Shown piece after piece: positions 27,602 through 62,438 of a DNA stretch of 64,000 nucleotides (the first letter of the stretch is position 1; the number at the start of each line of letters is the position of its first letter). The stretch is from a virus. The notes under the pieces were generated by a model that saw only the letters and a program-made list of their open reading frames with translations, was not told where the DNA came from and did not search any database. The stretch is taken from positions 64,001 through 128,000 of the IMG/VR virus record IMGVR_UViG_3300031992_000005; one strand, 5' to 3'. The translations under genes and the position numbers were made by a program.

Positions 27602-27755
27602 GCCAAATATGGCAGGAGAATGGGCTATTTACACTAAAAGGCATTGGTGGAATCATTGGGTAGAACGCCAGACCTATGCTAGCTTAGATCTGTGTGAAAA
27701 AGAAGCTGAAAAGATAGTCAAATTTCCAAAATACTATTTCAAATGGGGCAAATAG
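27555..27755 (+). CDS. hypothetical Trp-rich protein (66 aa)
   Basis: ATG ORF. Overlaps 27416..27601 by 47 nt. Confidence 0.4.
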   Translation: MWVKVDYSEEAKKNPKPNMAGEWAIYTKRHWWNHWVERQTYASLDLCEKEAEKIVKFPKYYFKWGK

Positions 27756-30220: not shown

Positions 30221-31825
30221 ATGGCTAAAAAGATAAAAGAAGAAGTTATTGAATTTCTAAAACCAAGAGATGCTGTAAGAAAAAGATACGGCATGTATAT
30301 TTCAACAAACGAAAATGCCAATGTGATCTTTCGAGAGATCATTGACAATTCATGCGATGAAATATCAGCTGGATATGGAGATACAGTATTAATTAGCAAT
30401 AACTTAAATGGTTTTTGTTTTGTAGCTGATAATGGTAGAGGTATACCTATCAGCATGTCTAAAGATAAACCAGGAGTAACTCAAGCTTATCTTAGTATAA
30501 GTGAATTACACAGTGGATCTAAATTTGATTCAACTGATGTAAGTAGAGTTGGTATGAATGGCGTAGGCTCAGCATGTTGTAATTTCTTATCTGATCAATA
30601 TTGGCTACTGTCTAGGATCACTGAGGATAATTATTATAAATCTATTCCCGCAGTTAAAGAACTATGGGAAAACAGTGGACCTAGAAGTAAAAGAGATTTG
30701 TTCTATGTGGCATTCTGTCACAAAGGTGAATTAGTTACAGAAGGAGCTGGTAGATTAAAGGACATAGAAAAAGCTATCTTCAAGGATATTAGAGGCTATA
30801 CTTCTATACCTGAGGGACAAAGTACTATTGTTCTTTTTAAACCGGACCCAGAGATCTTTGAATCTACTAATGCAGAAGTTCCTATCAGAAACTTACAGTA
30901 TTTTCTTATGATACAAGAGAAGTTTTATAAGAGAAAAATTAATATTGTAGTTGATGGACAGCTAGTGAATAATACGTTCAAGCCATTTAAATTTGAATTA
31001 ATTAGAATGGTTGAGCCAAAGGATACTAGTTTCAATAAACAAGTTGGTATCTATATGACATTTGAAGCTGACCCTGGATTAGGACAGAAAACTGAAATAG
31101 GTAGTGTTAATGGCCTTGATGTAAATCAGGGACAACATATACAAATTGCAGAATCTGTATATAAAGCTGCATTGAAGGATTATTATAAAATAAAGCATGA
31201 CTGCCTCTTAAATGGTCTTCAACTTTGTGTTATAATATTAGCTGGTGAGGTTGTATTCGATAGCCAAACTAAAACTAGATTAAAAAGTATTAGTAAGGTA
31301 AAATCATCGGACTTCGTTGACGTTGTTAAGGATATCGAAAAAATATTCAGACAAAACCCTGAATATTGGGATCTTCATGTGGAGAAACTGGATAAACTTG
31401 CTGAATCAATGAAGAGCATTGGTGCAGCAGATAAGGCACAGAAATTTATTGATGCTAATAGCGGAATAAATCAATATAGAAGTAGAGCTGATCTACCAAA
31501 AGGATTTGCTGATGCTACTAGCAGAGATAGAAGTGAATGTGAAATTCTAATTTGTGAAGGCTTATCAGCTGGTGGGTCCTTGATTGCAGGAAGAAAAGAT
31601 ACAAGGTATCAGGCGATACTCTCGCTTCGCGGAAAAATATTAAATGTAACTGATAAGGGTGTTGATCGGGCCCTTGAATCTAAAGTTATTAATGATATCT
31701 TCAAGGTTATCGGACTTGGACTCGATGTGAATTGGGTAGGAGCTGGATTAAACTACGAAGAGGCACACGAGGTTATCAAACGTAAGTCTAGGTACAACAA
31801 AATTATTATAGCAAGTGATGCGGAT
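30221..31825 (+). CDS. type II DNA topoisomerase large subunit (GyrB / T4 gp39+gp60-like), exon 1
   Basis: GHKL ATPase motifs (EIIDNSCDE, DNGRGIP, GMNGVGSA) and Toprim Glu (ICEGLSAGGS). The frame ends ..IIIASDAD just before an in-frame TAG, in the middle of the DxDxDG Toprim motif. Confidence 0.8.
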
Positions 31826-32693
31826 TAGAATTTATCTGAGTCCGTGAGATTTAGAAATAATTCTCAAAAGAATCGTATTGCTGCGGGGAACTCCTGTTAG
31901 GCTAATAGTACTAGGGATAGTAACAATCTATTAGATAGGGACAATCCGCTCGTTATAAAGATTAGTTAAAAAACAATAAAAAATATGAATAATATAAAAC
32001 TTTTTTCAGATATTACAAAAACTCTTTCAGACAGAAAAACTATTGAAAAGTTTATAGATAAATATGGATTTGATTTTATAAATCGAATAAATCACGATAG
32101 AAACGGAGGATGCTATGAAGATGGCTGCCCTAAAAGATTACACTTTGAAATGGGCATTAGTCATGGCGAAGCTGCACAATCTCCAGAAAAAGTTTTAAAA
32201 ATAATATCCTATAATAATGATATTATTGGATTATTTTACAATCACCCTAACTATTGCAAAGGATTTTCTGATTACCCAGGTGGATATCCAGTAACATGTT
32301 CCTGTTGGAAAGGAAAAATGTATATTCAATGCCTAGATAAGGTTTTTGATGATTTATATGGATGGGGAACTAGGGAAATTATTGCGAAGATTTTAGGTTG
32401 TAACGATAATAGCAGTTTTAGAAGCATATATCGTGCTGAAGAAGAAGAACGATATAATTCAAAATATTAATAATTATATACAAAAAATAAATATAAATTA
32501 ACAAAAACTAATCTTTATAACTTCAACGACTATCCCCAAAAGGGAGTAGGGTAGCAAGTCTATAACGGCTACTCGAAAGATACGACATCTGACCAGGTTA
32601 AGCTGAAGATGAAAATATAGTCTGATCTGTATGGAGACATACAGGAGTTCATAAGAGAACCGGGAATTAGTGACGCAATTCTTGAACAACATG
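31826..32693 (+). mobile_element. group I intron 1 (868 nt) with internal ORF
   Basis: The 5' exon ends in U31825. An internal guide GUCCGUG (31840..31846) can pair with the exon end UGCGGAU, with a U.G wobble at the splice site. The intron ends in G32693. Joining restores DAD|ADGDAI, equivalent to the GyrB DADVDGSHI motif. A 67-nt 5' core (31883..31949) and a 3' core of about 125 nt containing ..gaagatgaaaatatagtct (32500..32623) are nearly identical to those of intron 2. Confidence 0.75.
31985..32470 (+). CDS. intron-1-encoded protein, unknown family (161 aa)
   Basis: ATG ORF located between the two conserved ribozyme blocks. Cys/His-rich (CYEDGCPKRLH, HPNYC, CSCW). No LAGLIDADG, GIY-YIG, HNH or His-Cys-box signature recognised. 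Confidence 0.55.
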   Translation: MNNIKLFSDITKTLSDRKTIEKFIDKYGFDFINRINHDRNGGCYEDGCPKRLHFEMGISHGEAAQSPEKVLKIISYNNDIIGLFYNHPNYCKGFSDYPGGYPVTCSCWKGKMYIQCLDKVFDDLYGWGTREIIAKILGCNDNSSFRSIYRAEEEERYNSKY

Positions 32694-32916
32694 GCAGATG
32701 GAGATGCAATCTTTAATGAAATAATATACTTATTCAGTAAATTCGCACGTTTCTTATTAGACCATCATATGGTATATCGTGCTATGTCTCCTCTTTTCAG
32801 AGGAATCAGTAAGACAACAGGACAAGTAACTTATTATTATCCAGATGATAAGTTCGACAATAAGGGTATTCCAGTAGATCTTGATATAAAGAAACCATAT
32901 GATCGCTGGAAAGGAT
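32694..32916 (+). CDS. type II topoisomerase large subunit, exon 2
   Basis: ADGDAIFNEIIYLF..HMVYRAMSPLFRG..DRWKGL matches the GyrB Toprim tail (DG.HI..LL..F...G.vY.a.PPLY ... KGLGE). The reading frame continues only by splicing. Confidence 0.7.
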
Positions 32917-34455
32917 TAGGAAATAGTCCTAGTATGTAGAAATACATACCGTATAATTCTATTAAAAGCGGGGAACTCCTGTTAGGCTAATAGTACTAGA
33001 GATAGTAACAATCTATTAGATAGGGACAATCCGCAGTTGATGAGATTAGTTAAAAAATTAAAATAAAAACATGTTAAGACAAGACCTGAAGAAACAATTA
33101 GAGAACAAAGACTTAGACAAAATTTTCTTACAACATCGAGATAACATAGATCCAGGAAATTATAGAGTCGGGGAAATAGGCGAAGAAGTAGTTGTCTGGA
33201 ACCCTGACACTAATGAAATAATGGACTATTTCTTTGATGATAGTAAGGAAGAATGGTTTTGTTTAAGTATGATAAATAAAAATTTAGGTAATTATTCTAT
33301 AAATAAAAAAGGGGAAGTTAAAAGCCCAAAAAAACTACTAAAAAAAGTAGAACATGAAAGTTATTTATGCTATTTTCCATCTTATATTATAAATAAGAAA
33401 AGAAAATCTGTTAATCTCTATATTCATAGAGTATTAGCGATGATATTTATTCCAAACATAGATCCAAAAAATAAGGTAGATGTAGATCATATTGATAGGA
33501 ATAGGCATAATTTTTCACTAACTAACTTAAGATGGGTAACTAAAAAAGAAAGTGCTGAAAATAAAGAACAACCGCGTTGGCACGGGGAATATTCATACAT
33601 AGCCTACAAAGATAAAGAAAAGACACAAATCGCTTTCAAGCTAAATGAAGAGGATTTCCTTAAGAAAGGCTTTAAAAAGAAGCCATTATATGGTGCTATC
33701 AAGAACAATCATAGGTCACAAGGATATTATTGGACTAGAGTAAATCTACAGTTAGCAGAGTATCTAAAAAAGTTTAATATGCAAGAACAAGATATTGATG
33801 ATACAGAATGGAAATTACATTATTCTGGAACATTCTGGGTACATCCGCTAGGTTTAGTAAAAAAAACAAAACATAGTCCAATTATTTCTCCTGGTTGTCT
33901 TGACAGGAAGCGGAAAGAACGTCATTCAGTTAAAAGATATAATGGTAAACTAGTTCATATTTTGGTGGCAGAGGTGTTTTTAAACGACAATAAACCAATA
34001 CCTAAGAAATATGAGGTGGACCATACATCTGGAGATTCTCTGGATAATAGAGCCTCGAATTTAAATATTTGCACACACATCAAGAATATGAATAACCCAA
34101 ATACTTTAAAAAAAAAATATAAAAAAATAATCAATCTTGATACTGGTGAAATCTATAATTCGATAGCAGAATGTGCAAATGTATCTAAAATACATCGTGC
34201 CACGGTGTATAGAAATATAAAAAAAGGAATAAGATTTAAATATTACAAAGAAAATTAACAAAAAACTAATCTCATCAACTTCAACGACTATCCCTTTATG
34301 GGAGTAGAATAGCAAGTCTACAATGGCTATTCGAAAGATAGAACATCTGACCAGGTTAAGCTGAAGATGAAAATATAGTCTAAGCACCGTAGAGATGCGG
34401 TGGAGAGTTTACTACTCTCGCGTTTAAAGTAGGCGATTAAACGTAAATATAACTG
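32917..34455 (+). mobile_element. group I intron 2 (1539 nt) with HNH homing-endonuclease ORF
   Basis: The 5' exon ends in U32916. Guide GUCCU (32926..32930) pairs with the exon end AGGAU. The intron ends in G34455. Joining restores KGLG|SLSPETGEVYDSFYNPYTRRLVLVT, equivalent to GyrB KGLGEMNPEQLWETTMDP..R.L..V. Its core blocks 32968..33034 and 34257..34381 match intron 1. Confidence 0.7.
33071..34258 (+). CDS. HNH homing endonuclease (tandem NUMOD4+HNH_3 units, C-terminal NUMOD1-like HTH)
   Basis: YSINKKGEVKS + VDVDHIDRNRHNFSLTNLRWVTKKESAENK, then a second unit YEVDHTSGDSLDNRASNLNICTHIKNMNN, then GEIYNSIAECANVSKIHRATVYRNIKKG. Confidence 0.75.
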   Translation: MLRQDLKKQLENKDLDKIFLQHRDNIDPGNYRVGEIGEEVVVWNPDTNEIMDYFFDDSKEEWFCLSMINKNLGNYSINKKGEVKSPKKLLKKVEHESYLCYFPSYIINKKRKSVNLYIHRVLAMIFIPNIDPKNKVDVDHIDRNRHNFSLTNLRWVTKKESAENKEQPRWHGEYSYIAYKDKEKTQIAFKLNEEDFLKKGFKKKPLYGAIKNNHRSQGYYWTRVNLQLAEYLKKFNMQEQDIDDTEWKLHYSGTFWVHPLGLVKKTKHSPIISPGCLDRKRKERHSVKRYNGKLVHILVAEVFLNDNKPIPKKYEVDHTSGDSLDNRASNLNICTHIKNMNNPNTLKKKYKKIINLDTGEIYNSIAECANVSKIHRATVYRNIKKGIRFKYYKEN

Positions 34456-34643
34456 TAGGAAGTCTTTCGCCTGAAACAGGTGAAGTATATGATTCCTTCT
34501 ATAACCCTTATACAAGAAGACTTGTCTTAGTAACTCCTGAGGACATTGATTATTCGATGAAACTCAACGAGGACATTGATAGTAGGAAAAAGCTATTATA
34601 TGATAAAAATATTATTAGTAATCCTTATAATTTTACAGATTAA
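34456..34643 (+). CDS. type II topoisomerase large subunit, exon 3 (C-terminal tail)
   Basis: The frame ..(L)GSLSPETGEVYDSFYNPYTRRLVLVTPEDID...NFTD* ends in TAATG, overlapping the start of the next subunit gene. Confidence 0.65.
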
Positions 34644-43732: not shown

Positions 43733-43765
43733 AAAAGGTGGGGACATTGCGTCCCCTTTTTTTTT
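43733..43765. terminator. bidirectional intrinsic terminator at convergence point
   Basis: A6-ggtggggac-attgc-gtcccc-T9, between the + and - gene blocks. Confidence 0.65.
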
Positions 43766-46097
43766 ATTGTTCAACTATAGTCCAACCATATTTTCCTAAA
43801 TAATAATTTCCCGTTCCCATCCAAGTGTCGTAGCCTGTAGAACCAGCTGGAACTGTTAAAGTACCATTGGACTTAATATAATAAAAGGTACTAGAACTTA
43901 TACTTGGGGCTGTAGTTGCAAGAGAAGTAATATTAACTAGATGAGTACAGTATTCGAATGCGTGGTTACCAATACTAGTCACTGAATTACCTATTGTAAC
44001 AGAAGTTAAAGAACTACAATAAACAAATGCATTAATTCCAATACTAGTAACTAAATCTGGAATTGTAATAGAGGTTAGAGAAGAACAACTTCGAAATGCA
44101 CCGGCACCAATACTAGTTACTGAATCTGGTATTATAACAGAAGTTAGAGAGGTACAACTTTCAAATGCAGCGCCACCAATACTAGTAACTGAATCTGGTA
44201 TTGTAACAGAAGTTAGAGAGGTACAAGTCCGAAATGTAAAATCACTAATACTAGTAACTGAACTAGGAATTGTAATAGATGTTAAAGAAGTACAATTATA
44301 AAATGCACTATTACCAATACTAGTAACTAAATTTGGAATTGTAATAGATGTTAAAGAAGTACAATTATAAAATGCACTACTACCAATCCTAGTAACTGAA
44401 TCTCCTATTATGATAGAAGTTAGAGAAGTACAGTTTTGAAACGCATAATTATCAATACTAGTAACTGAACTAGGAATTGTGATAGAAGTTAAAGAAGTAC
44501 AACCATTAAATGCACTATTACCAATACTAGTAACTGATTCTGGAATTGTGATAGAGGTTAAAGCAGAACAATCACTAAATGCACTACTTCCAATACTAGT
44601 AACTGAACTTGGAATTATAATAGAAGTTAAGGAAATACAACCAGCAAATGCATTATTATCAATACTAGTAACTGAATTTGGAATTATAGTGTTCTTACAA
44701 CCAGTAATTAATTTATTACTAGATTTTCCTATAATTGCGTTACAATCATTTCTAGAGTCATAATAAGAATTATTTGGATCAACTACTATTACTTCAATAC
44801 TACTGCATCCATAAAATGCATACTGACCAATATTAGTAACTGAACTAGGAATTGTGATAGAAGTTAAAGAAGTACAACCATTAAATGCACTATTACCAAT
44901 ACTAGTAACTGATTCTGGAATTGTGATAGAAGTTAGGGAAGTGCAGCTCTGAAATGCCTGACCACTAATACCAACAACCGAATCTGGAATTATTACATCT
45001 AAGTTTATACCTCTATAACGATAGACTATGTTATTTTTTATACATAACCCGTCAATCTCCAAATCTATTATAGTAGCTCCCCAATAACTGTACACTGTCT
45101 CATCAAGAGAGCTATTATTAACAAAATTATTAGATAAAAATAAGCAACCAGCAAATGCACCCTGACCAATACTAGTGACTGATTCTGGAATTATGATAGA
45201 AGTTAATCCAGTACATCCAGCAAATGCACCACTACCAAGACTAGTGATTGAATCTGGAATTGTAACGGAAGATAAAGAAAAACAATTATTAAATGCACCA
45301 TTACCCATACTAGTAATTGAATTACCTAGCGTAAGACTAGTTAGTTCATGACAGCCAGAAAATTCTTGTCCACCGATGGCAGGAACGGAATCTCCTATAA
45401 TTAATGTTTTTAATTTTCGACAAAAACTAGAACCATTAGAACTAAAAATACCTGATAATGGCGCTTGTGCATTATAATTAATATACTCTAAATTAATACA
45501 CCTAGCAAATGCACCACTAAGACTAGTAACTGATTCTGGTATTGTAATAGAAGTTAAAGAAGTACAACTACTAAATGCACCATAATTAACCTCAATTACT
45601 GATTCTGGTATTGTAATAGAAGTTAGAGAAGTACAATTCTGAAATGCACTATTATTAATTTTAGTAACACTACTTCCGATAACAAGATTAACCAGTTTAG
45701 GACAATTATTAAATGCACCATTAGTAATAGTTGTTACAGAATCTCCTATGATTGCTGTTACAAGTTCTGGAGAATTAGAAAAAGATGAATTACTAATACT
45801 AGTACACAATTTACCTATTTCAGCTTTAACACAATTACTATTATATTCACCCAGTCCGGATGCAGTTAACTCACCTTCGCCCTCTATTTCAATAACACTT
45901 CCATCTATTAAGGTTAATTTGCAGAATCCTTCATAAGGAGGTTCTTCGCTATCACCCCCCCCCCCTTGGCCGATTAGGTCTTCACTATTAAGTGATGGGA
46001 AGTAGTCACTCTTAGTCTTCTTTTTCACATTTGAATAAATATATTCACTTAGTGTATCCCCACCTAATTCATGAGAGAAACAATCATTTACATTCAT
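43764..46097 (-). CDS. BspA-like leucine-rich-repeat (LRR_5) protein, 777 aa
   Basis: More than 20 units of about 23 aa of the type CTSLTSITIPxSVTSIGxxAFxx. The C-terminal GTLTVPAGSTGYDTWMGTGNYYLGKYGW module is shared with two other LRR proteins. Confidence 0.8.
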   Translation of the reverse strand: MNVNDCFSHELGGDTLSEYIYSNVKKKTKSDYFPSLNSEDLIGQGGGGDSEEPPYEGFCKLTLIDGSVIEIEGEGELTASGLGEYNSNCVKAEIGKLCTSISNSSFSNSPELVTAIIGDSVTTITNGAFNNCPKLVNLVIGSSVTKINNSAFQNCTSLTSITIPESVIEVNYGAFSSCTSLTSITIPESVTSLSGAFARCINLEYINYNAQAPLSGIFSSNGSSFCRKLKTLIIGDSVPAIGGQEFSGCHELTSLTLGNSITSMGNGAFNNCFSLSSVTIPDSITSLGSGAFAGCTGLTSIIIPESVTSIGQGAFAGCLFLSNNFVNNSSLDETVYSYWGATIIDLEIDGLCIKNNIVYRYRGINLDVIIPDSVVGISGQAFQSCTSLTSITIPESVTSIGNSAFNGCTSLTSITIPSSVTNIGQYAFYGCSSIEVIVVDPNNSYYDSRNDCNAIIGKSSNKLITGCKNTIIPNSVTSIDNNAFAGCISLTSIIIPSSVTSIGSSAFSDCSALTSITIPESVTSIGNSAFNGCTSLTSITIPSSVTSIDNYAFQNCTSLTSIIIGDSVTRIGSSAFYNCTSLTSITIPNLVTSIGNSAFYNCTSLTSITIPSSVTSISDFTFRTCTSLTSVTIPDSVTSIGGAAFESCTSLTSVIIPDSVTSIGAGAFRSCSSLTSITIPDLVTSIGINAFVYCSSLTSVTIGNSVTSIGNHAFEYCTHLVNITSLATTAPSISSSTFYYIKSNGTLTVPAGSTGYDTWMGTGNYYLGKYGWTIVEQ
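45955..45965 (-). repeat. G11 homopolymer (C11 on + strand) inside the LRR gene
   Basis: Read directly as atca-ccccccccccc-ttgg. It encodes GGGG at residues 45-48 (..GQGGGGDSEE..). Confidence 0.9.
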
Positions 46098-46113
46098 AAT
46101 TTAAGTATTTTTT

Positions 46114-47511
46114 TTAATTCATTGTTACTTTTATCCAGCCTCCTGGTAATGAGTTCATCCAGGTATCATAGCCTCTAGCACCTTGCGGAACATATAATGT
46201 ACCGTTAGGACAGATGTCTTTAAATGGGTTAAAGCCACTTGGGAAAGTTGGTGCAATTGCTGGTTTTGCTACTATTTCACATAAGTTACTACAATAAACA
46301 AATGTATCTTGACCAATAGATGTAATACTACCAGGTATTATTATACGAGATAAACCTGCACATCCAAGAAATACACCATGATCAATAGTAGTCAGTGAAC
46401 TATATTCAGGTAAATTAATTTCAATTAGCCTGTAACAATGGGAAAATGCATAAGAACCAATACTACTTAGATTATCCCCTAAGACAACTTTTTTCAAACC
46501 ACCACAACCATCGAACTTATCACCGGTGATACTAGTGACACCTTTTAAGACTACTGTTTCCAATGTATTAATTGCTCTGAAAAATCCATATTCAATACTT
46601 GTCACGGAATCCCCTAAGATTAATGTCTCTAGAGTTCTATGATTACCAAAAGTTTCTGTACTGAAATTAACCTGTGCATCATAATTAATATACTTAATAT
46701 TTGCACAATTCTTAAACGCATTACTTCCAATACTAGTAACTGAATGTGGAACTGTTATGTTAGCTAGGTTTGTACATCCGTCAAATGCATTATCTCCAAT
46801 ACTAGCTACTCCATCCTCTATTACTACATCAGTTAAGCTAGTACAACCTTGAAAGGTGGAGCTATTAATATTAGTTAACTTACCAGGGATTTCTATACTA
46901 ATTAAGCTAGTGCAGCCATAAAATGCACTACTACCTAAGGTAGTTAGATTCTTAGGCAACCTCACATTAACTAAGCTATTACAATTATATAAAGCCTGAT
47001 CACCAATACTAGTAACGGTATTAGGTATTACCACCTTGGTTAAATTATTACATCCATATAATGCAAATTTACCTATAGAAGTTACACCATCAGGTATAAT
47101 TAATTCCACCAATGCACCACTAAAGAAAATTGGAGCTGTCCCGCCCAAAGTGCCACTTGGATTAGTCAATTCAAACCTAATTGTATGTATTCCTGTAGTA
47201 TTAAAGGTATAGGTTACTACTATAGGATTATCCCCCGTTTGAAGTACTCCATCAATTTCAGTAGCTTTAATCACATCAGGTCCAGTATAACCAGATGTTA
47301 TAACAGTAGGTGAAGTAGTACTAGTGACATTATACTTACCTATCATCCATGCACTAGGCTTATTATAATGTACCTCATTTTCTGCTTCACAGTATACTAC
47401 ATTAGGTCCTTGGATGCTATCTTTTTGTTCTTCATACTCGGTATGAGTATTAAATTTCTTTAAATATTTCATATTAGAAAAAATAGAGCAACTCTCTCTC
47501 AAGTTGCTCAT
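46114..47511 (-). CDS. BspA-like LRR protein (start uncertain: 47511 or 47472)
   Basis: Non-repeat N-terminal domain of about 150 aa, then LRR_5 units (CNNLTKVVIPNTVTSIGDQALYNCNSL..). C-terminal GTLYVPQGARGYDTWMNSLPGGW. Confidence 0.75.
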   Translation of the reverse strand: MSNLRESCSIFSNMKYLKKFNTHTEYEEQKDSIQGPNVVYCEAENEVHYNKPSAWMIGKYNVTSTTSPTVITSGYTGPDVIKATEIDGVLQTGDNPIVVTYTFNTTGIHTIRFELTNPSGTLGGTAPIFFSGALVELIIPDGVTSIGKFALYGCNNLTKVVIPNTVTSIGDQALYNCNSLVNVRLPKNLTTLGSSAFYGCTSLISIEIPGKLTNINSSTFQGCTSLTDVVIEDGVASIGDNAFDGCTNLANITVPHSVTSIGSNAFKNCANIKYINYDAQVNFSTETFGNHRTLETLILGDSVTSIEYGFFRAINTLETVVLKGVTSITGDKFDGCGGLKKVVLGDNLSSIGSYAFSHCYRLIEINLPEYSSLTTIDHGVFLGCAGLSRIIIPGSITSIGQDTFVYCSNLCEIVAKPAIAPTFPSGFNPFKDICPNGTLYVPQGARGYDTWMNSLPGGWIKVTMN

Positions 47512-47518
47512 TTTAATT

Positions 47519-47905
47519 TTATAGTAAGTTCGTAAGTTTTTCAAAAAGACGATCGAGTTTAGCCATATCAAGAAGAGCCGTATAGCCTTTATGTGCTATT
47601 ACTTTTCCCTTGAACTGAACTAATGGATACATACCACCATCCCAGATATCAAGTCGTCTTTCATCAGGGATATATACGATTTCGCCCAGAGGGGTTTTTC
47701 TATGATCCTGACTACGAATTACGTATTTATATACATCGACACCTTCTGCGATTAGCATTGTTAATGTATTTAATCCAAACAATATCTTTATATTATCATA
47801 GATGGATTTTACTTTAAGGGCATTCTTATGCGTTTCATCCTTAAAGAATCCTGTAACATTCTTAACTTCCGCAAAAGGTAATCCTTGATAACTAAGCCTT
47901 AACAT
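47519..47905 (-). CDS. hypothetical protein (128 aa)
   Basis: ATG ORF in the minus-strand train. Confidence 0.5.
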   Translation of the reverse strand: MLRLSYQGLPFAEVKNVTGFFKDETHKNALKVKSIYDNIKILFGLNTLTMLIAEGVDVYKYVIRSQDHRKTPLGEIVYIPDERRLDIWDGGMYPLVQFKGKVIAHKGYTALLDMAKLDRLFEKLTNLL

Positions 47906-48497
47906 CTGTTTGTAATTTTTGTTGTGCTAAATTTAAAGCCGAATTATAGTAGCAATTATTGCCCAGAGGATTATAACTCATATAATCAAGATTTCTGTTC
48001 AACGTTACTTTAGACACGATATTTCTTACCTCCAGTAGAATATCTTCAGGGTCTCCTAGAAAATTATACCAACCAGGGTCAGCAAATATCATTAGTTCCT
48101 TTGAAGTCAATTTCACAAACAAGTTAATCTCTGATACCCAAGCCTCAGGTAATGCTGTTAACCCAAATTCAATGTCTTTATTAAGAGAGCTTTGATCAAA
48201 ATTTCTCTGTACATCAACTAGAGTAAAATCCTTTATTTTATCAAATACTAGGTCATTCAATACAAAAAGCTTACTCTCTTCAATGATATCCTTGTAGTCC
48301 TTCACAACAAAGTCTCTATAATAAGACGGATAAAATGAGTCATAATAATAGTTTTTACTTAAAGTATCAATGCAAGAACTCAAGCTACTTGATAAATCAG
48401 TAGTAACACCAGTTATTTTAGAGAATGCATCATTAAGAACTATCTTTGATAAGCTACTTACTACTCCATTTTCATCTTTCATTTTTTCTTCCATCAT
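47892..48497 (-). CDS. hypothetical protein (201 aa)
   Basis: ATGA-coupled downstream of the nuclease gene. Confidence 0.55.
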   Translation of the reverse strand: MMEEKMKDENGVVSSLSKIVLNDAFSKITGVTTDLSSSLSSCIDTLSKNYYYDSFYPSYYRDFVVKDYKDIIEESKLFVLNDLVFDKIKDFTLVDVQRNFDQSSLNKDIEFGLTALPEAWVSEINLFVKLTSKELMIFADPGWYNFLGDPEDILLEVRNIVSKVTLNRNLDYMSYNPLGNNCYYNSALNLAQQKLQTDVKA

Positions 48498-51214
48498 TTT
48501 ACTAAAACATTAGTTATTGCTGAATCATTTAATGTTAATTGAATGGACTTATTATTAAAGCTTGGAACAGAATCCATATGACTACATAATATTACGCAAT
48601 CAACCTTCATCTCTTTAATCAAGTCTAATACAATATCATGATTTTCTGAATCGAGGTGCTTTAAGAATTCATCCATAATTAAGAATCCCATTCCAGTTAC
48701 GATTTTCTGAAGAAAATCCACGTCAAGAATAGTTCTCTGACCATCACTACAGTTGATATAAGGCACTTCATTTCCCCTAAGATTATAAAAACTATCCAAG
48801 CTAAGATGTTCTTTTCCCCTAAAGGTAAAGTGATTTGTCTTATAAGTTACTCTATTGTCACTAAATTCTCCTGCAAGACGTTTCATAATCTCTTCATATA
48901 TATCACCGGTCGGACCAGTTAGTTTTATATACCTCTGGAAATCTTCCATGAGAGAAGAGGTTTTTTCAATCTCACTTTCGTAGGCTTTTATTTTTTCTTC
49001 TTCCTTAGATTTATCTAGAACTAGAGTATTGTACTGATTCCATGTACCAATCTCTGCCTCTATAAAACCGAGTTGTTCAATGAAACCCTCTGGAAGTTCA
49101 GGCTTCTCCGGGATATTACCAAGATTGGATAGATCTTCCTCTACCTTTTTCAGATCTTGCCTTACTTTATCATACTCAATACTAGTGAGAGTATTATTTT
49201 GTTTCTCTGTATAAAGTCTAGCAATACTGTTATTTAATTCAGCTTTTGCCTTATCATCCCAACCCAAGAGAACTTGATTTTGTTCCTGAATAGCCCTATC
49301 TACAGAGAAAATGCGCTGTTCAAATTCCTGAATATGACTTCCCGGATTTTTCTTAATAGGTTGGCCACATGTAGGACATATCGCACCGGCCATTAATTGA
49401 TCCTTTTCCCTAATTAACTTATCTTTTTCTACATTGAGTGAATAAAATTTCATATATTCAGCCTCAACCCAAGATTGTTGTTTCTTAAGTCGTTCTATTT
49501 CAGAATCAATAGTAGGAAAATCCCTAAAGGAGTCTAACTTTTGCTTCAATTCAGCTAATCTGAAAGTATCATTTTCCTTCCTGGCCATTAAGGAAGCACT
49601 TCTTTCTATAAAATCGTTATAAGCGATCAGTTTCTTTTGTAAAGATCTTCCATAATCTCTTTTAACAATCAAAGAATCTAGTGATTCTTGTGGAAGAACA
49701 ATACCTTGTAGTTTGGTTTCAATAAACCTAAGAACTTCTTTAGATTTATCGATACCCTCCAGCCACTTACTACTACCTCTCACCAACTGCTCGAGGAGTA
49801 CCTTAGCATGATCATTGTAGGTATCGATCCTATCCATCTTGAAAAACCTACTAATGATCTCAGATTTTCTCTCTGGAGTAATATCCCCAATGAATCTAGG
49901 GTGATCTGAGTCAAAGAAACATACATCCATGAAGTCTATGAAAGGAAATCTAATATGCATATCCTTTTCAAACTCTGCCTTCTTATTATATTTCTGTGGC
50001 TCACCTTCAATCCAAAAACCATACTTCTTACTACCTCTCTGAATTCTATAATTCACACCTTGATATATAAAATCTACTTCGGTTATACATTCTTTTGCTC
50101 CAAATTGAACAAAATCCTTGTAATGTGGATTTTCTACAAAGGCATACTTAATAGCAGATAAGAGACTAGATTTACCAGAACCATTATGTCCCGTCAAGAG
50201 GATTCTATCTCCTGCACCGAGATAAAGTTCTGCTTCTTCTATACTTCTCCAATTCTTACAATAGAATCTGGTGATAGTAAAGTTAAAATCTACCTCATTG
50301 GCATCTAAGTTTGGAATAGTTTTTATTACTTCAGAATGAATGTTCTCTAATTTTTCTCGAACTAATACATTTTCTATTAAGTGACCTATTTCTTCCCAAG
50401 CTGGGATATTGATATTTCTTACGCCACTATTTACTACGTGATTACTCGGCTTATATACATACCAAGTCTTATCTAATTCATTCCAACCCTCAAGATCCCT
50501 TTGTTCCGTATATTGAAACTTGATAAGATTATCATGAGGATTAAGATTTACCCAATAGCACTTACTTTCTACACAATCCACTATTACACCAGTACAGTAC
50601 TCTGAATCAGACATCCTACAACGTTGTGGAATACCTATACTCATATACTTACCACTGTTGGCTGGCTTATGTATATCTCCGCAAATAGCGAGTTTAAACT
50701 TGCTTTCATCTAGAACTTGGCTATGGAAATTATCTTCCCTCGAATAAGATATAGTAGCATGCGTAAATAAGATATCAAGCTGCCCATTTACCCAAGATAG
50801 GTCAAACTCAGGTCTCCAATTATAAAACCCTATTCTCTTGCCATCTACATTAATCTCCTTCATATCTGCATAATAAAGGTTCTTTGGTAGCATGACAGAT
50901 AATGCACAGTCAGTAAATTCAGAATTAACTCCCTTGTTATCCTGATCGTGATTTCCCCAGATTATAAAACCCATCTTAAAATGAGCCATTACAGTATCTA
51001 AGAAATTCTTTACTTCTGCCTGAACATAGGGTCTATTTAAAAAATTATCTACAGTATCTCCAGCGATAACTAAGATATCAGCCCCTTCAGACTCAGCAAC
51101 CTCTATTATATTAGAGGCTACTGTTCTAGTCTGATAGAGTCTATATTTATTTGTTGGATTTCTTTGTGGATAATCGTGTATATGAAGATCCGAAATTGCA
51201 AGAATTTTACTCAT
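48494..51214 (-). CDS. fused Mre11-Rad50 (SbcD-SbcC / T4 gp47-gp46-like) nuclease-ATPase, 906 aa
   Basis: N-terminal phosphoesterase motifs ISDLHIHD, AGDTVD, WGNHD and GDIHKP. Then Walker A GHNGSGKSS, coiled coil with zinc hook CPTCGQP, signature SDGQRT, Walker B LIMDEF and H-loop LCSH. Confidence 0.8.
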   Translation of the reverse strand: MSKILAISDLHIHDYPQRNPTNKYRLYQTRTVASNIIEVAESEGADILVIAGDTVDNFLNRPYVQAEVKNFLDTVMAHFKMGFIIWGNHDQDNKGVNSEFTDCALSVMLPKNLYYADMKEINVDGKRIGFYNWRPEFDLSWVNGQLDILFTHATISYSREDNFHSQVLDESKFKLAICGDIHKPANSGKYMSIGIPQRCRMSDSEYCTGVIVDCVESKCYWVNLNPHDNLIKFQYTEQRDLEGWNELDKTWYVYKPSNHVVNSGVRNINIPAWEEIGHLIENVLVREKLENIHSEVIKTIPNLDANEVDFNFTITRFYCKNWRSIEEAELYLGAGDRILLTGHNGSGKSSLLSAIKYAFVENPHYKDFVQFGAKECITEVDFIYQGVNYRIQRGSKKYGFWIEGEPQKYNKKAEFEKDMHIRFPFIDFMDVCFFDSDHPRFIGDITPERKSEIISRFFKMDRIDTYNDHAKVLLEQLVRGSSKWLEGIDKSKEVLRFIETKLQGIVLPQESLDSLIVKRDYGRSLQKKLIAYNDFIERSASLMARKENDTFRLAELKQKLDSFRDFPTIDSEIERLKKQQSWVEAEYMKFYSLNVEKDKLIREKDQLMAGAICPTCGQPIKKNPGSHIQEFEQRIFSVDRAIQEQNQVLLGWDDKAKAELNNSIARLYTEKQNNTLTSIEYDKVRQDLKKVEEDLSNLGNIPEKPELPEGFIEQLGFIEAEIGTWNQYNTLVLDKSKEEEKIKAYESEIEKTSSLMEDFQRYIKLTGPTGDIYEEIMKRLAGEFSDNRVTYKTNHFTFRGKEHLSLDSFYNLRGNEVPYINCSDGQRTILDVDFLQKIVTGMGFLIMDEFLKHLDSENHDIVLDLIKEMKVDCVILCSHMDSVPSFNNKSIQLTLNDSAITNVLVK

Positions 51215-56839: not shown

Positions 56840-57376
56840 TTAGAAGAAATCCACTATTATATAAGAAACAGAATTATATACAGGCCTTCTATACAACAAT
56901 TTATTCCAGATCCAAGGAATAGGTAATAAACAATACCAGAAGTGCTTTTTATCTATTTCTGGAAAATAGTTATGTGATGTAATATCAGACGTTGTAATAA
57001 AATTCCACTTAGGCTTTTTTATTGCAATAAAACCTACCTTACAACCTTCTGGTATCCAACCTGCAACTAGGTTAATAAAATCCTCAGGATAAGAATGCCA
57101 ATCTCCCTCATAAGTAAAGTTAAGAATACACTCATGACCCTTAAAGAGATTCATTGCTTCTTTAACTGTCATCTTACTTCTCCAAAGACCATGAGCAAAT
57201 ACCCACGTATCTCCCTTTTCTTTTACTCTAAGATCAAACCAGGTAATACCACTATTAAGCTGTTCTGACAAAGTTTTTCTTTGACACTTAGCAAAGATCT
57301 TACCTAGTCGACTTAAAAACCCAGAACTTTTCTCACCTGTCGCACTATTATGCGTTCCGATTTTCAATGAATTCAT
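56840..57376 (-). CDS. PLC-like phosphodiesterase (PI-PLC X-domain-like), 178 aa
   Basis: IGTHNSATGE (compare PGTHDSGT), ITWFDLRV (compare IFDIRGR) and VFAHGLW (compare VLHHGPL), with the order and spacing of the bacterial PI-PLC catalytic His/Arg/His. Its start overlaps the cca gene by 29 nt. Confidence 0.45.
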   Translation of the reverse strand: MNSLKIGTHNSATGEKSSGFLSRLGKIFAKCQRKTLSEQLNSGITWFDLRVKEKGDTWVFAHGLWRSKMTVKEAMNLFKGHECILNFTYEGDWHSYPEDFINLVAGWIPEGCKVGFIAIKKPKWNFITTSDITSHNYFPEIDKKHFWYCLLPIPWIWNKLLYRRPVYNSVSYIIVDFF

Positions 57377-58727
57377 TATATTTAATTTTAATAAAATTTT
57401 CCAAAGCCTCAGGAGTATTTTCTAACACTCCATCTAAAACTGCCTCTTTCATAGCATTTTTTATTAGACCGACCATTCTTCCTTTTCCAATACCTAGGAT
57501 TTCCATTATCTCATTTCCTCCAAGGCATGGTTGAAAAAGCCGAACGAGATCTTTTTCTTGCAGGTCACTAATCATCTTTCTTAACTTATCATAGTGATCC
57601 TGTAACCTCATTCTTTTCGAGGGTCTTCTCGAAGTTACGTCAGATTCACAAAGGAGTAGTAGGTCTTCTAAATCTTCTCCAGCATCATAAATAAGCCTTC
57701 TAACAGCACTATCAGTAATAACTGAAGTACTAATCATAGCTGGCCTCATGTGCATATCAACCAGCTTTTGAACATAGTCTTTCTTACCTATCCTAAGCCT
57801 ATCAAGAACTCCTGGTATTAAGTTAGCCCCAATATGTTCATGATTATAGAAGGTCCACTCTCCTGTAGTAGGATCAAATCTCTGAGTAGAAGCTTTTCCA
57901 ATATCATGAAGAAGAGCCGCTATTCTAAGGTAAGGATTAGTTGTTTTCCCCACAATATTTCTCAAAACCTGTAAAGAATGCTTATAATTATCCTTATGTC
58001 CTTCAAGATCATTTCCTGCTTTAAGGGCAGTTAACTCAGGGAGAATCATTTCAAGGAGTTCAGCTGCATCTAGGAGTTCAATTCCTGCAACTGGATCGGG
58101 AGAAGCCATGATTTTTAGAAATTCCGTGCCAATCCTATCAGGGGTTAGAATTTTTATTCTATCCTTCAAAACCTTCATTGCATCAATTAGTCTCGAATCT
58201 ATGAGAAAACCCAATTTACACGTGAATCTAATAGCTCTGAACATGCGCAATGGATCATCCTTGAAAGTAATCATGGGATCCGTTGGTGTCATTATAATCT
58301 TACTTTTTAAATACTTTCGTCCATCAAACGGATCAACATACTCCCCAAAATGCTTCTCATTAAGACACATGGCAATAGTATTTATAGTAAAATCCCTTCT
58401 CATCTGATCATCATATAATGTACCTGGTACTACAGAAGGTTTTCTACTATCTGGGCTATAGGATTCTTTCCTAGCCCCAACAAATTCTACTTCTAGGTTA
58501 TTATACTTTACTGCGGCAGTTCCATAACGTTCATATCTGAGAACCTTACTCTGATGAATCTCCTTGGCAAATTCATCCGCCATCTTTACACCATCACCGA
58601 CGACAACAATATCAATGTCGTCATTTTCTATACCTAGAAGCTTATCTCTTACGTATCCACCTATAACATAACATGGTAGATTAATTTTGTCTGCTACTTT
58701 TCCAATTAATTTTAATAAGTCTTCCAT
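57348..58727 (-). CDS. cca: tRNA nucleotidyltransferase (CCA-adding enzyme) with HD domain
   Basis: Pol-beta head GGYVRDKLLG..DDIDIVV, RDFTINT, and HD domain HSLQV..LLHDIGK. Confidence 0.85.
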   Translation of the reverse strand: MEDLLKLIGKVADKINLPCYVIGGYVRDKLLGIENDDIDIVVVGDGVKMADEFAKEIHQSKVLRYERYGTAAVKYNNLEVEFVGARKESYSPDSRKPSVVPGTLYDDQMRRDFTINTIAMCLNEKHFGEYVDPFDGRKYLKSKIIMTPTDPMITFKDDPLRMFRAIRFTCKLGFLIDSRLIDAMKVLKDRIKILTPDRIGTEFLKIMASPDPVAGIELLDAAELLEMILPELTALKAGNDLEGHKDNYKHSLQVLRNIVGKTTNPYLRIAALLHDIGKASTQRFDPTTGEWTFYNHEHIGANLIPGVLDRLRIGKKDYVQKLVDMHMRPAMISTSVITDSAVRRLIYDAGEDLEDLLLLCESDVTSRRPSKRMRLQDHYDKLRKMISDLQEKDLVRLFQPCLGGNEIMEILGIGKGRMVGLIKNAMKEAVLDGVLENTPEALENFIKIKYNEFIENRNA

Positions 58728-60803: not shown

Positions 60804-62438
60804 ATGGATAGTAAAATTATTAGAAAAGGCGATGGTGTTCAAGAGAAGATCATCGCTGGTGTATCAGAATCAGTTAAAGCAATTAAAACAACTCTTGGTC
60901 CAAGTGGAAAAGGAGTAGCACTAGATGAAGGTGATATGTTAGGAATAACTATCACACGAGATGGGGCTACTGTTGCTAAAGCTATTCACCTAAAAGATAG
61001 AGAGGAAAATATTGGCGCAGAACTCGTTAAGAAAGCTGCCACTATGACTGAAGATCTGGCGGGTGATGGAACATCCACGACATCAATTCTCATAGAAGAA
61101 TTTTGTAAGAAAGGTCAGAAAGCAGTAAATGCCGGAGCTAATGTAAATGAGCTCAAAAGTGGTATGCTGAAAGCCGGTAAGTGGATGGAGAACTTTATCA
61201 AGGATAACGCCATTGAAATTGATGGTGACTTAACTAAGATTGAAAAAGTTGCTACATTATCAGCAAACAATGATCCTGAAATAGGTAGATTAGTAGTGAA
61301 AGGTCTTAGCGAAGTTGGTCTTAATGGTCTTATTACGGCTGACTTAGCATCCGGACTTGACACTATTATTGATATTACTACTGGTATGAAATTAGATAAA
61401 GGTTGGGCAAGTCCACAATATGTGACCGAACCTGAAACAGGAAAATGTATCCTAGAGGATCCTTATGTCTATGTGGTAGGTGAAAAGATTAGTTCAGTAT
61501 CTCAGATAATGAACTTCTTAGAGTCTTATCAAAATTCCGGTGGTGGTCGTCCATTACTCATTGTATGTGATGATATGGATGATAATGTTAATAGTATGCT
61601 GGTAATCAATACTTTACGTGGAGCTCTCAGATGCTGTGTAGTAAAAGGAATTGATTTTGGTGATGGTAGAAAGAATGCTATGGCTGACTTAGCAGTAGCA
61701 GTTAATGCTAATTATATCTGCCCTGATAATAACTCTGACCTAAGTAAGAGTACTATTGGAGATGCAGGTTTTGCTAAGAAGGTAGTTGTTAGTAGAGACT
61801 CTTGTATTATCTTTGAAGGCTATGGTGATCCACAGGCTATTAAAGATAGAGCTAATATCATTAAGGCTAGACTAGAAAGCAATGAAATTAGTGACTATGA
61901 CAAGAAGAAGTTCGAAAAACGCTTAGCCAACTTAACGGGCGGTATTGCAGTCATTCGAGCTGGTGGAGCTGTTGAATCTGAAAAGAGAAACAGAAAAGCA
62001 ACTATTGAAGATGCTGTCCTAGCTGCTAAGAGTGCTATTGAAGAAGGATGTTGTCCTGGTGGTGGATATGTTTTCTGGAAAGGAAGTATTGAAGCTAAGG
62101 AAGACAGGGAGTTTTGGAAAAAACTCACAGAAGATGAAGCACAAGGAGCTAAGATTGTATTCGATTCACTACCAATTATCCTAAAGACCGTGGCAGAAAA
62201 TGCCGGTGTCTCTGGAGATGTAGTTCTGAATGAGATGGTTAAGTCTAAGAAGAAAGAAAACTATGGCTTTAATGCTAAAACTAAGAACTTCGGTAACTTA
62301 GTAGATACTGGAATTCTTGATAGTGCTAAAGTTCTTAGAGTTAGCCTAGAAAATAGTATCAGTACAGCATCAATGATTCTCTTGATTGACTGTACTATTA
62401 TACAGGAAGAAGAAAATAAGGAAAACAGTGGACAATAA
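60804..62438 (+). CDS. groL: GroEL-like chaperonin (Cpn60), 544 aa
   Basis: TLGPSGKGV, ITRDGATVAKAI, AGDGTSTTSIL, VIRAGGAVESE and EEGCCPGGG. No C-terminal GGM tail. Confidence 0.85.
   Translation: MDSKIIRKGDGVQEKIIAGVSESVKAIKTTLGPSGKGVALDEGDMLGITITRDGATVAKAIHLKDREENIGAELVKKAATMTEDLAGDGTSTTSILIEEFCKKGQKAVNAGANVNELKSGMLKAGKWMENFIKDNAIEIDGDLTKIEKVATLSANNDPEIGRLVVKGLSEVGLNGLITADLASGLDTIIDITTGMKLDKGWASPQYVTEPETGKCILEDPYVYVVGEKISSVSQIMNFLESYQNSGGGRPLLIVCDDMDDNVNSMLVINTLRGALRCCVVKGIDFGDGRKNAMADLAVAVNANYICPDNNSDLSKSTIGDAGFAKKVVVSRDSCIIFEGYGDPQAIKDRANIIKARLESNEISDYDKKKFEKRLANLTGGIAVIRAGGAVESEKRNRKATIEDAVLAAKSAIEEGCCPGGGYVFWKGSIEAKEDREFWKKLTEDEAQGAKIVFDSLPIILKTVAENAGVSGDVVLNEMVKSKKKENYGFNAKTKNFGNLVDTGILDSAKVLRVSLENSISTASMILLIDCTIIQEEENKENSGQ

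Follow-up and report, generated by a model that had tools for sequence, protein, structure and literature searches.

The closest described relatives of the element reported here are the group I introns of phage T4 (td, which encodes I-TevI, and also nrdB and nrdD), which belong to subgroup IA2 and reside in nucleotide-metabolism genes. Several introns within one phage gene are known from orf142 and nrdE of Staphylococcus phage Twort and from the DNA polymerase genes of the SPO1 family, and phages SPO1 and SP82 encode within a group I intron HNH_3 endonucleases of the I-HmuI type, which carry a DH..N..N motif. More than half of the viral group I introns are of subgroup IA2 (PMC11835236). In gut jumbo phages, genes with several introns are common and supported by transcript data (PMC12880540). 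Jug phages carry a mean of 18.5 group I introns per genome; the targets listed for them are terL, nrdD and genes for DNA polymerase, and metatranscriptomes demonstrated splicing for 37 of 76 (PMC12880540). In phage topoisomerase II, the Toprim cluster is known to be targeted by the MobA/bypass cassette (10.1101/2022.08.31.505936). Here we analyzed a 64,000-nt stretch of viral DNA (positions 64,001 to 128,000 of IMG/VR record IMGVR_UViG_3300031992_000005, called the window below), in which two mobile group I introns of T4 td type (IA2) very probably split the gene for the large subunit of a type II topoisomerase, and predicted splicing would yield a protein of 671 amino acids (aa).

Both introns of the window follow the helix plan of td: P9 is GNRA-capped, and P7.1 and P7.2, which mark subgroup IA, intervene between P7 and P3'. 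Also shared with td are AACGACUAU in J6/7-P7 and AUAUAGUC in P7'. As in td, the open reading frame (ORF) is looped out of P6, and intron 1 also has the ..GAACAnnAUG 3' end. The window introns differ from td in their host gene, a topoisomerase, in the P4-P5 block, which is 67 nt long with an extended P5 in the window and 29 nt long in td, in the encoded proteins (a tandem HNH_3 protein and a member of an uncharacterised family, in contrast to the GIY-YIG enzyme I-TevI), and in the occurrence of two introns in one gene. In the last respect the locus resembles the multi-intron genes of Twort, the SPO1 family and the Jug/crAss-like phages, where introns of one family likewise occupy conserved motifs of essential genes and ORF-containing copies are mixed with ORF-less ones. 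The MobA and 50-nt bypass cassette of T4 gene 39/60 targets the Toprim metal-binding cluster of the same protein; its coding gap of 50 nt comes after DADHDG and is three codons away from the first insertion site of the window (DAD/ADG, where the slash here and below marks a splice junction). T4, however, splits the protein and relies on ribosome hopping, whereas RNA splicing to one polypeptide is predicted for the window. A search of the literature, incomplete in its coverage, turned up no description of a phage type II topoisomerase gene with a group I intron. Elements of this kind are nevertheless entirely familiar, and the understanding of how they work is unchanged.

We infer a common transcript for the topoisomerase gene with its two introns and the A-subunit gene that follows it. 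Each intron would then fold into a P1-P9.2 ribozyme, in which pairing of the guide with the last five to six exon bases would place the 5' splice site at a U.G wobble; a guanosine cofactor would attack this site and the terminal G of the intron would next define exon ligation. In the 671-aa product of splicing, both the metal-binding cluster DADADG and the motif KGLGS would be whole again. The likeliest role of the proteins encoded in the introns is to cut or nick alleles that lack the intron when phages co-infect a cell, with repair copying the intron in (homing).

The split topoisomerase gene and its two predicted ribozymes

Exon 1 matched PHROG 543 ('DNA topoisomerase II large subunit', E=5.7e-67) and the Pfam families Toprim, HATPase_c and DNA_gyraseB. 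The first-pass annotation, made from the letters of the window, had described a GyrB-like gene split in the codons of the DxDxDG and KGLG motifs, with 5' exons ending in U and inserts ending in G, and all of this was recovered at every coordinate that it gave (Table 1). When joined, the three exons form 2016 nt in frame; the resulting 671 aa agree with the proposed length of about 670 aa, close to that of T4 gp39 plus gp60 (516+160 = 676 aa). The joined protein aligned with uninterrupted phage GyrB-like genes in a single high-scoring segment pair over residues 8-671. The predicted spliced sequence reads ..GATGCGGAT/GCAGATGGA.. at junction 1 (31825 joined to 32694) and ..TGGAAAGGAT/TAGGAAGTC.. 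at junction 2 (32916 joined to 34456), where exon 3 opens with TA GGA AGT.., that is, LGSLSPETGEVYD.. in the protein. The ATG of the A-subunit gene overlaps the stop codon of exon 3.

Table 1. Coordinates, in window numbering, of the topoisomerase exons, the two predicted introns with their parts, and the downstream gene
Feature	Position	Strand	Basis or remark
Exon 1, GyrB/gp39-like topoisomerase II large-subunit gene	30221..31825	+	535 codons; end ..IIIASDAD lies inside the Toprim DxDxDG acidic cluster
Intron 1, T4 td-like (IA2) group I intron, 868 nt	31826..32693	+	starts UAG.., ends ..CAUG; P1-P9.2 fold, R1 match
Intron 1 internal guide region	31834..31846	+	P1 in minimum free energy (MFE) folds; exon/guide covariation across relatives
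Intron 1 P4-P5(-P5a)-P4' core	31883..31949	+	66/67 positions same as in intron 2
Intron 1 ORF, 161 aa, in P6 loop	31985..32470	+	rare family, no recognisable domain
Intron 1 P6 3' strand, 16-bp stem, AACUAAUCUUUAUAAC	32506..32521	+	pairs with 31952-31967, closes the ORF-bearing loop
Intron 1 3' catalytic core (J6/7, P7, P7.1, P7.2, P3', P8, P7', P9)	32522..32647	+	R1 match
Exon 2	32694..32916	+	ADGDAIFNE...DRWKG and first base of the Leu codon
Intron 2, group I intron of the family of intron 1, 1539 nt	32917..34455	+	ends ..ACUG; folds, R1 match
Intron 2 P4-P5 core	32968..33034	+	shared-core match, folds
Intron 2 HNH_3 ORF, 395 aa, in P6 loop	33071..34258	+	modules at residues ~105-165 and ~290-350, C-terminal tail
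Intron 2 P6 3' strand (34264-34279) and 3' catalytic core (34280-34405)	34264..34405	+	R1 match, folds
Exon 3	34456..34643	+	(L)GSLSPETGEVYD...NFTD; stop codon at 34641-34643
gp52-like topoisomerase II A subunit, 445 aa	34643..35980	+	Pfam DNA_topoisoIV E=6.7e-13, PHROG 551

A splice pair shifted by one position (31826/32694) is also in frame and would place D-S-D where the preferred junction gives D-A-D. The junction between 31825 and 32694 is favoured because G31840 of the guide then forms the canonical wobble with U31825, because P10 (AUCUG at 31834-31838 with CAGAU at 32695-32699 of the 3' exon) would then adjoin P1, and because the intron-less homologue L003, described below, has Ala at this position.

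To compare the RNA structures, intron segments were folded separately for both window introns, three introns of the related locus L002 (a, b and c), those of L124 and L125, and T4 td. The same helix plan was found in all eight: a wobble P1, a tetraloop-capped P2, P4-P5, P6, P7.1 and P7.2, P8, P9 with a GNRA cap, P9.1 and P9.2. In each of the eight the strands of P3, which pair at long range across the ORF, were complementary, with five sequence variants. In intron 1 the P1 helix joins GUCCGU(G) at 31840-31846 to the 5' exon end (U)GCGGAU, and in intron 2 the guide GUCCU at 32926-32930 faces AGGAU; the former guide lies 14 nt and the latter 9 nt inside the intron. Both guides had been proposed in the first-pass annotation, and each paired with its own exon end in unconstrained MFE folding, leaving a U.G wobble at the splice site. 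Across the eight introns, exon position -5 and its guide partner form C-G, U-A, A-U and G-C pairs, and this covariation fixes the 5' splice sites. The last nucleotide is a G in both introns (omega-G). We also noticed that UAGGAA forms the first six bases of both intron 2 and exon 3, as is usual where the P1 extension and P10 exchange.

The two introns differ by 12 compensatory double changes (two in P3, four in P6, five in P9 and one in P7.2) with no broken pair, a count from which P2 was excluded since its positions are not homologous. The whole-intron MAFFT alignment is not structure-aware in P1, P2 and the P7.2-P8 region of td, and pairs were counted from the per-segment folds. The shared 5' core of 67 nt with a single difference was as described before, and the shared 3' core, first put at about 125 nt, proved to extend to 148 nt (32476-32623 against 34234-34381, 82% identity). 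The core motifs were absent from the rest of the 64-kb window, for which shuffled sequences lead one to expect 0-0.07 matches. A third candidate copy at 27702-27720, with three mismatches, was rejected as a chance match, and R1 (see below) found nothing there. Each ORF is looped out of P6 and its loop is closed by a perfect 16-bp stem, so that the two unlike ORFs do occupy the same peripheral position (L6), as the first-pass annotation had proposed. Its assignment of both inserts to related group I introns is borne out by the helix plan, the covariation and the covariance-model matches.

The 3' catalytic core of intron 1 resembles that of many phage introns, and a custom covariance model, R1, was built from 44 such cores of viral contigs without any window or T4 sequence. 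The model was restricted to the 3' half because strict regular expressions gave only four ORF-less full-length relatives. R1 found exactly two matches in the window, at the 3' cores of intron 1 (73.7 bits, E=2.8e-16) and intron 2 (66.2 bits, E=1.8e-14), which is in the range of the scores for T4 td (72.5 bits) and nrdB (70.0 bits). Among 16 training loci that we checked, eight reached the gathering score of Rfam model RF00028 over the training stretch, and a ninth had a match at or above that score on a neighbouring intron. Within the family (113 distinct members) 94.8% of the cells were paired, in comparison to 67.8% after shuffling; the covariation score was 0.668 against 0.163 for shuffled alignments, none of 500 shuffles reached the observed value, and slid controls gave 0.06-0.15.

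Related topoisomerase loci with and without introns

An uninterrupted gene of 673 aa, 58% identical to the joined protein, is present in L003, a 305-kb viral contig. It aligns without gaps over junction 1 (STDADADGSQI against ASDAD/ADGDAI) and over junction 2 (RYKGLGSLSPETGEV against RWKG(L)GSLSPETGEV). In the closer relatives L143 and L144, which are 97% identical over residues 1-611 in one high-scoring segment pair, intron 1 is absent and the gene is contiguous across site 1, while an HNH intron is found at site 2. The comparison with intron-less relatives that the first-pass annotation had recommended thus agrees with both insertion sites. The intron-less site 1 of L143 reads ATAGCAACTGATGCCGATCCGGACGGAGAT. 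We observed that this site (L143:3594-3653) has GCC GAT CCG GAC where the window has GCG GAT/GCA GAT (31820-31825 and 32694-32705), with Pro replacing Ala. The difference lies right at the junction, and would be expected from a co-conversion tract and equally from a target that resists cleavage.

The relatives together cover every combination of presence, absence and ORF content at the two sites. Of the two sites, only site 1 holds an intron in L129, L131 and L134, whereas both are occupied in L002. The intron at site 2 is polymorphic among close relatives, an indirect pointer to homing by its HNH protein. ORF-less versions of ~325 nt occur at site 1 in L129 and L131 and at site 2 in L002. One site 1 copy of L002 encodes a 320-aa protein with sub-threshold matches only, the best being to Phage endonuclease I (E=0.0019; 18.3 bits, for a cut-off of 29.1). 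Judging from these sequences, the ORF content of the introns changes freely at both sites. The position of the site 1 intron also varies: it follows the first Asp of DxDxDG in L129, L124 and L125 and the second Asp in the window, and in these four loci it tracks the match between exon and guide.

Several further insertions were noticed in this gene. Two related contigs of jumbo-phage type, L002:7603-9255 (identical to L128) and L131:8023-8670, carry two td-like introns in tandem in the DxDxDG codons, only 6 nt apart, in the order ..ACGGAT, intron a, GCAGAT, intron b, GCAGAY GG.., and intron a of both loci ends in ..AAUAGCAGAU. The reading frame and a 6-bp P10 of intron a would call for a micro-exon of 6 nt (GCAGAU), with A as the last intron base; if intron a ended in G, the micro-exon would have 5 nt and the frame would be broken unless the 5' splice site shifted by one. 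A third insertion of ~417 nt was seen at residue 445, in the ..CEGxSA Toprim glutamate motif, in L130:5755-6171 and L131:7336-7752; it had no RF00028 match at E<=0.01 and no R1 match, and the window is uninterrupted at this site. A precomputed Pfam Intein_splicing match was present in the upstream part of the gene in L124:1744-4827 and L125:2789-4825 (products of 1027 and 678 aa), two relatives with the intron that encodes the 161-aa protein, so an intein and a group I intron appear to coexist in the topoisomerase genes of these two loci.

In Vibrio phage 150E35-1 (OX241562.1), an isolated phage, a topoisomerase IIA gene likewise contains a group I intron, with scores of 81.4 bits for RF00028 and 80.5 bits for R1. 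Unlike the introns of the window, it is single and ORF-less and interrupts a different site, ..AILPL/RGK.., in the PLRGK Toprim motif. This intron (L126:1736-2130, corresponding to 145723-146117 of OX241562.1) is unannotated, and at the locus the record gives two partial proteins and, on the reverse strand, two small 'hypothetical proteins'.

Splicing, its rivals and the origin of the two copies

Several points weigh against the reading of the locus as a gene spliced from two mobile introns. RF00028 gave no match in the window, either at its gathering score (50 bits) or at E<=10; the only Rfam match in the intron search of the window was a chance one, to an sRNA model (E=9.7). RF00028 appears to overlook the window introns and T4 td because the ORF lies inside the ribozyme. 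The miss is not informative, since in a control region of T4 (134000-146000) the td intron was also missed at E<=1 and nrdB stayed below the threshold with 35.7 bits, since ORF-less introns at the same sites of relatives are recognised (53.7 bits for site 2 of L002, 47.3 for site 1 of L002 and 51.1 for site 1 of L131), and since R1 matches both inserts; it nevertheless counts as a direct test that failed. The fit to a group I covariance model, by which the first-pass annotation had wished its claim to be judged, was thus absent with the Rfam model and present with R1. The R1 family, in turn, was collected by a pattern taken from the core of the window itself, and its anchor motifs match partly by construction; this concern is lessened by the matches to T4 td and nrdB and by the training loci that RF00028 recognises. 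P10 of intron 2 is weak, with ~2 bp. The 161-aa ORF has neither a nuclease motif nor a confident fold, and a role in mobility is a guess. Finally, splicing is a prediction from sequence, and co-transcription is deduced solely from the absence of terminator-like sites.

If the inserts were free-standing homing-endonuclease cassettes, the three fragments of the topoisomerase could be translated separately and assemble, and genes in pieces of this kind exist: gp39 and gp60 of T4 assemble after insertion of mobA, as do the separately translated pieces of NrdA of phage Aeh1 after insertion of mobE. T4 divides the same Toprim domain between two working polypeptides (10.1101/2022.08.31.505936; PMC2988022). 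In the window, a TAG codon directly after ..IIIASDAD ends exon 1 at once, and the final three bases of intron 1 (..CAUG/GCAGAU) are an AUG in frame with exon 2. Exon 3, however, has no in-frame start codon upstream (there is a TAA at 34425-34427), and we found no terminator-like site on the + strand within the gene; for these two reasons separate translation seems unlikely. Both inserts, moreover, contain complete group I cores with covariation, the pieces have no added C- or N-terminal extension peptides of the MobA/MobE-split type, and the ORF-less inserts of ~325 nt found at both sites in relatives are inexplicable by an endonuclease cassette. Taken with these observations, a gene in pieces is very improbable. 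Alternatively, the introns may be real, with at least one of them impaired in splicing or dependent on a helper, such as a maturase activity of the 161-aa protein or a host factor, so that expression of the gene would be partial or conditional. The lack of a nuclease signature in the 161-aa ORF and the minimal P10 of intron 2 would agree with this, as would one of the tandem introns of related contigs, which seemingly ends without the terminal G and suggests that imperfect copies are tolerated in the lineage. We give this possibility a low probability, considering that neither intron of the window has lost a core helix, the U.G wobble or the terminal G and that the exons are highly conserved (62 synonymous to 21 non-synonymous differences between exon 1 and that of strain L127), which indicates that the gene is expressed.

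Three other candidates were rejected. An intein does not agree with the stop codons, as the frame of exon 1 stops at the first intron codon and that of exon 2 seven codons into intron 2, and no ORF of the window matched a Hint/Intein Pfam domain. A group II intron was dismissed for lack of a reverse-transcriptase domain, and a pseudogene because the exons are conserved and in frame.

Within the preferred reading, two spliced td-type introns, the relation of the two copies may be explained in more than one way. The first-pass annotation proposed that one ribozyme was duplicated to the second site and that the ORFs were then swapped. This is plausible and fits the data, but identity between the introns is mosaic (99% in P4-P5, 95% in P3'-P8, 59% in P1-P2 and ~50% from P9 to the end), and gene conversion of the cores or independent invasions fit equally well. 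We find it quite conceivable, though slightly on the doubtful side, that two td-like introns, already distinct, invaded separately and that gene conversion within the genome later made their catalytic cores alike. This would account for the high identity in the core segments next to the low identity of the flanking ones, and for the tails, of which that of intron 1 resembles T4 td and L129 and that of intron 2 resembles L124 and L2c. It would also agree with the core of intron 1 being nearer to that of intron 2 (1/67 differences) than to its own orthologue in L127 (3/67), with the three intron cores of L002 being closer to each other than to those of the window, and with the occurrence of intron 2 by itself in L143 and of intron 1 by itself in L129, L131 and L134. 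However, these counts are small, and cores under strong selection could look homogenised without being so. In addition, GUCC is common to the two guides and GGAU to the two exon ends, which is what transposition of a single intron by reverse splicing requires and which would allow ectopic spread by that route.

Intron-encoded proteins, genome context and implications

The 395-aa protein of intron 2 matched Pfam PF13392 (HNH_3, E=2.2e-18) in two stretches and PHROG HNH families down to E=2.3e-32, and it is predicted to be a homing endonuclease of the HNH (HNH_3/I-HmuI-like) type. It has ~40 homologues of similar length, many of them on contigs of 200-400 kb. Like I-HmuI of SPO1 and SP82 it is intron-encoded and carries the HNH_3 catalytic motif; unlike I-HmuI it has two HNH_3 modules in its 395 aa. 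The catalytic motifs are seen at residues ~140-160 (DHIDRNRHN..NLRWV) and ~318-345 (DHTSGDSLDN..NL), and the tandem layout is kept in ~30 homologous clusters of 380-407 aa. The known enzymes of the I-HmuI type are single-module nickases, and by analogy the tandem form might cut both strands.

The 161-aa protein of intron 1 gave no sequence match in Pfam, PHROG or the PDB (the last searched by single sequence and by profile). Its homologues number six among 5.8 billion proteins, and a profile search of 1.84 billion representatives found two clusters. An AlphaFold2 model had a mean predicted local distance difference test score (pLDDT) of 59, too poor for fold matching, and Foldseek returned no PDB match at E<=0.001. 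Sequence and fold searches revealed no similarity to GIY-YIG, HNH, LAGLIDADG, PD-(D/E)xK or EDxHD nucleases. In comparison to strain L127 (93% identical DNA), the ORF has 10 synonymous and 4 non-synonymous codon differences, and its homologues on longer contigs (L124, L125 and L127) all lie in the DxDxDG codons of the same topoisomerase gene, where the introns of L124 and L125 fold as members of the family of intron 1. Both observations point to a real, constrained protein tied to site 1. Our default guess is that it is a candidate homing endonuclease, with a maturase as the alternative. More tentatively, and in our opinion rather unlikely, it could found a new endonuclease or maturase family devoted to the DxDxDG (Toprim) codons in phage topoisomerase II genes and, separately, the intron family could spread within the gene by guide-directed reverse splicing in addition to endonuclease homing. 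Pointers to reverse splicing are that each guide fits its own ..GGAU or ..AGAU exon end and that relatives carry two copies 6 nt apart.

An identical stretch was found on a 108-kb contig, and the HNH protein also occurs on a 354-kb contig. Other genes of the window, at 43764-47571 (-), 48494-51214 (-), 57348-58727 (-) and 60804-62438 (+), encode two large BspA-type leucine-rich-repeat proteins (LRR_5, E=9e-172), a fused Metallophos and SMC-like ATPase protein (SbcCD- or gp46-47-like), a CCA-adding or poly(A) polymerase-HD enzyme and a GroEL-type chaperonin. We found no tRNA genes in the 64 kb, and start codons were without obvious Shine-Dalgarno sequences. The context genes and these two absences fit a genome of the jumbo-phage type.

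With regard to annotation, gene callers report this essential gene as three fragments and two hypothetical proteins, and recognising the introns restores a topoisomerase of gp39+gp60 length; phage screens that rely on Rfam will systematically miss ORF-bearing IA2 introns, T4 td included. With the introns predicted here, type II topoisomerase joins the phage genes colonised by IA2 introns. The codons of the Toprim metal-binding cluster emerge as a hotspot shared by group I introns, in the window and its relatives, and the MobA/bypass cassette of T4. The same gene with 0, 1, 2, 3 or 4 insertions, among which are ORF-less, HNH, PD-(D/E)xK-like and unknown-ORF introns, offers a small natural series for intron gain, loss, ORF exchange and core homogenisation.

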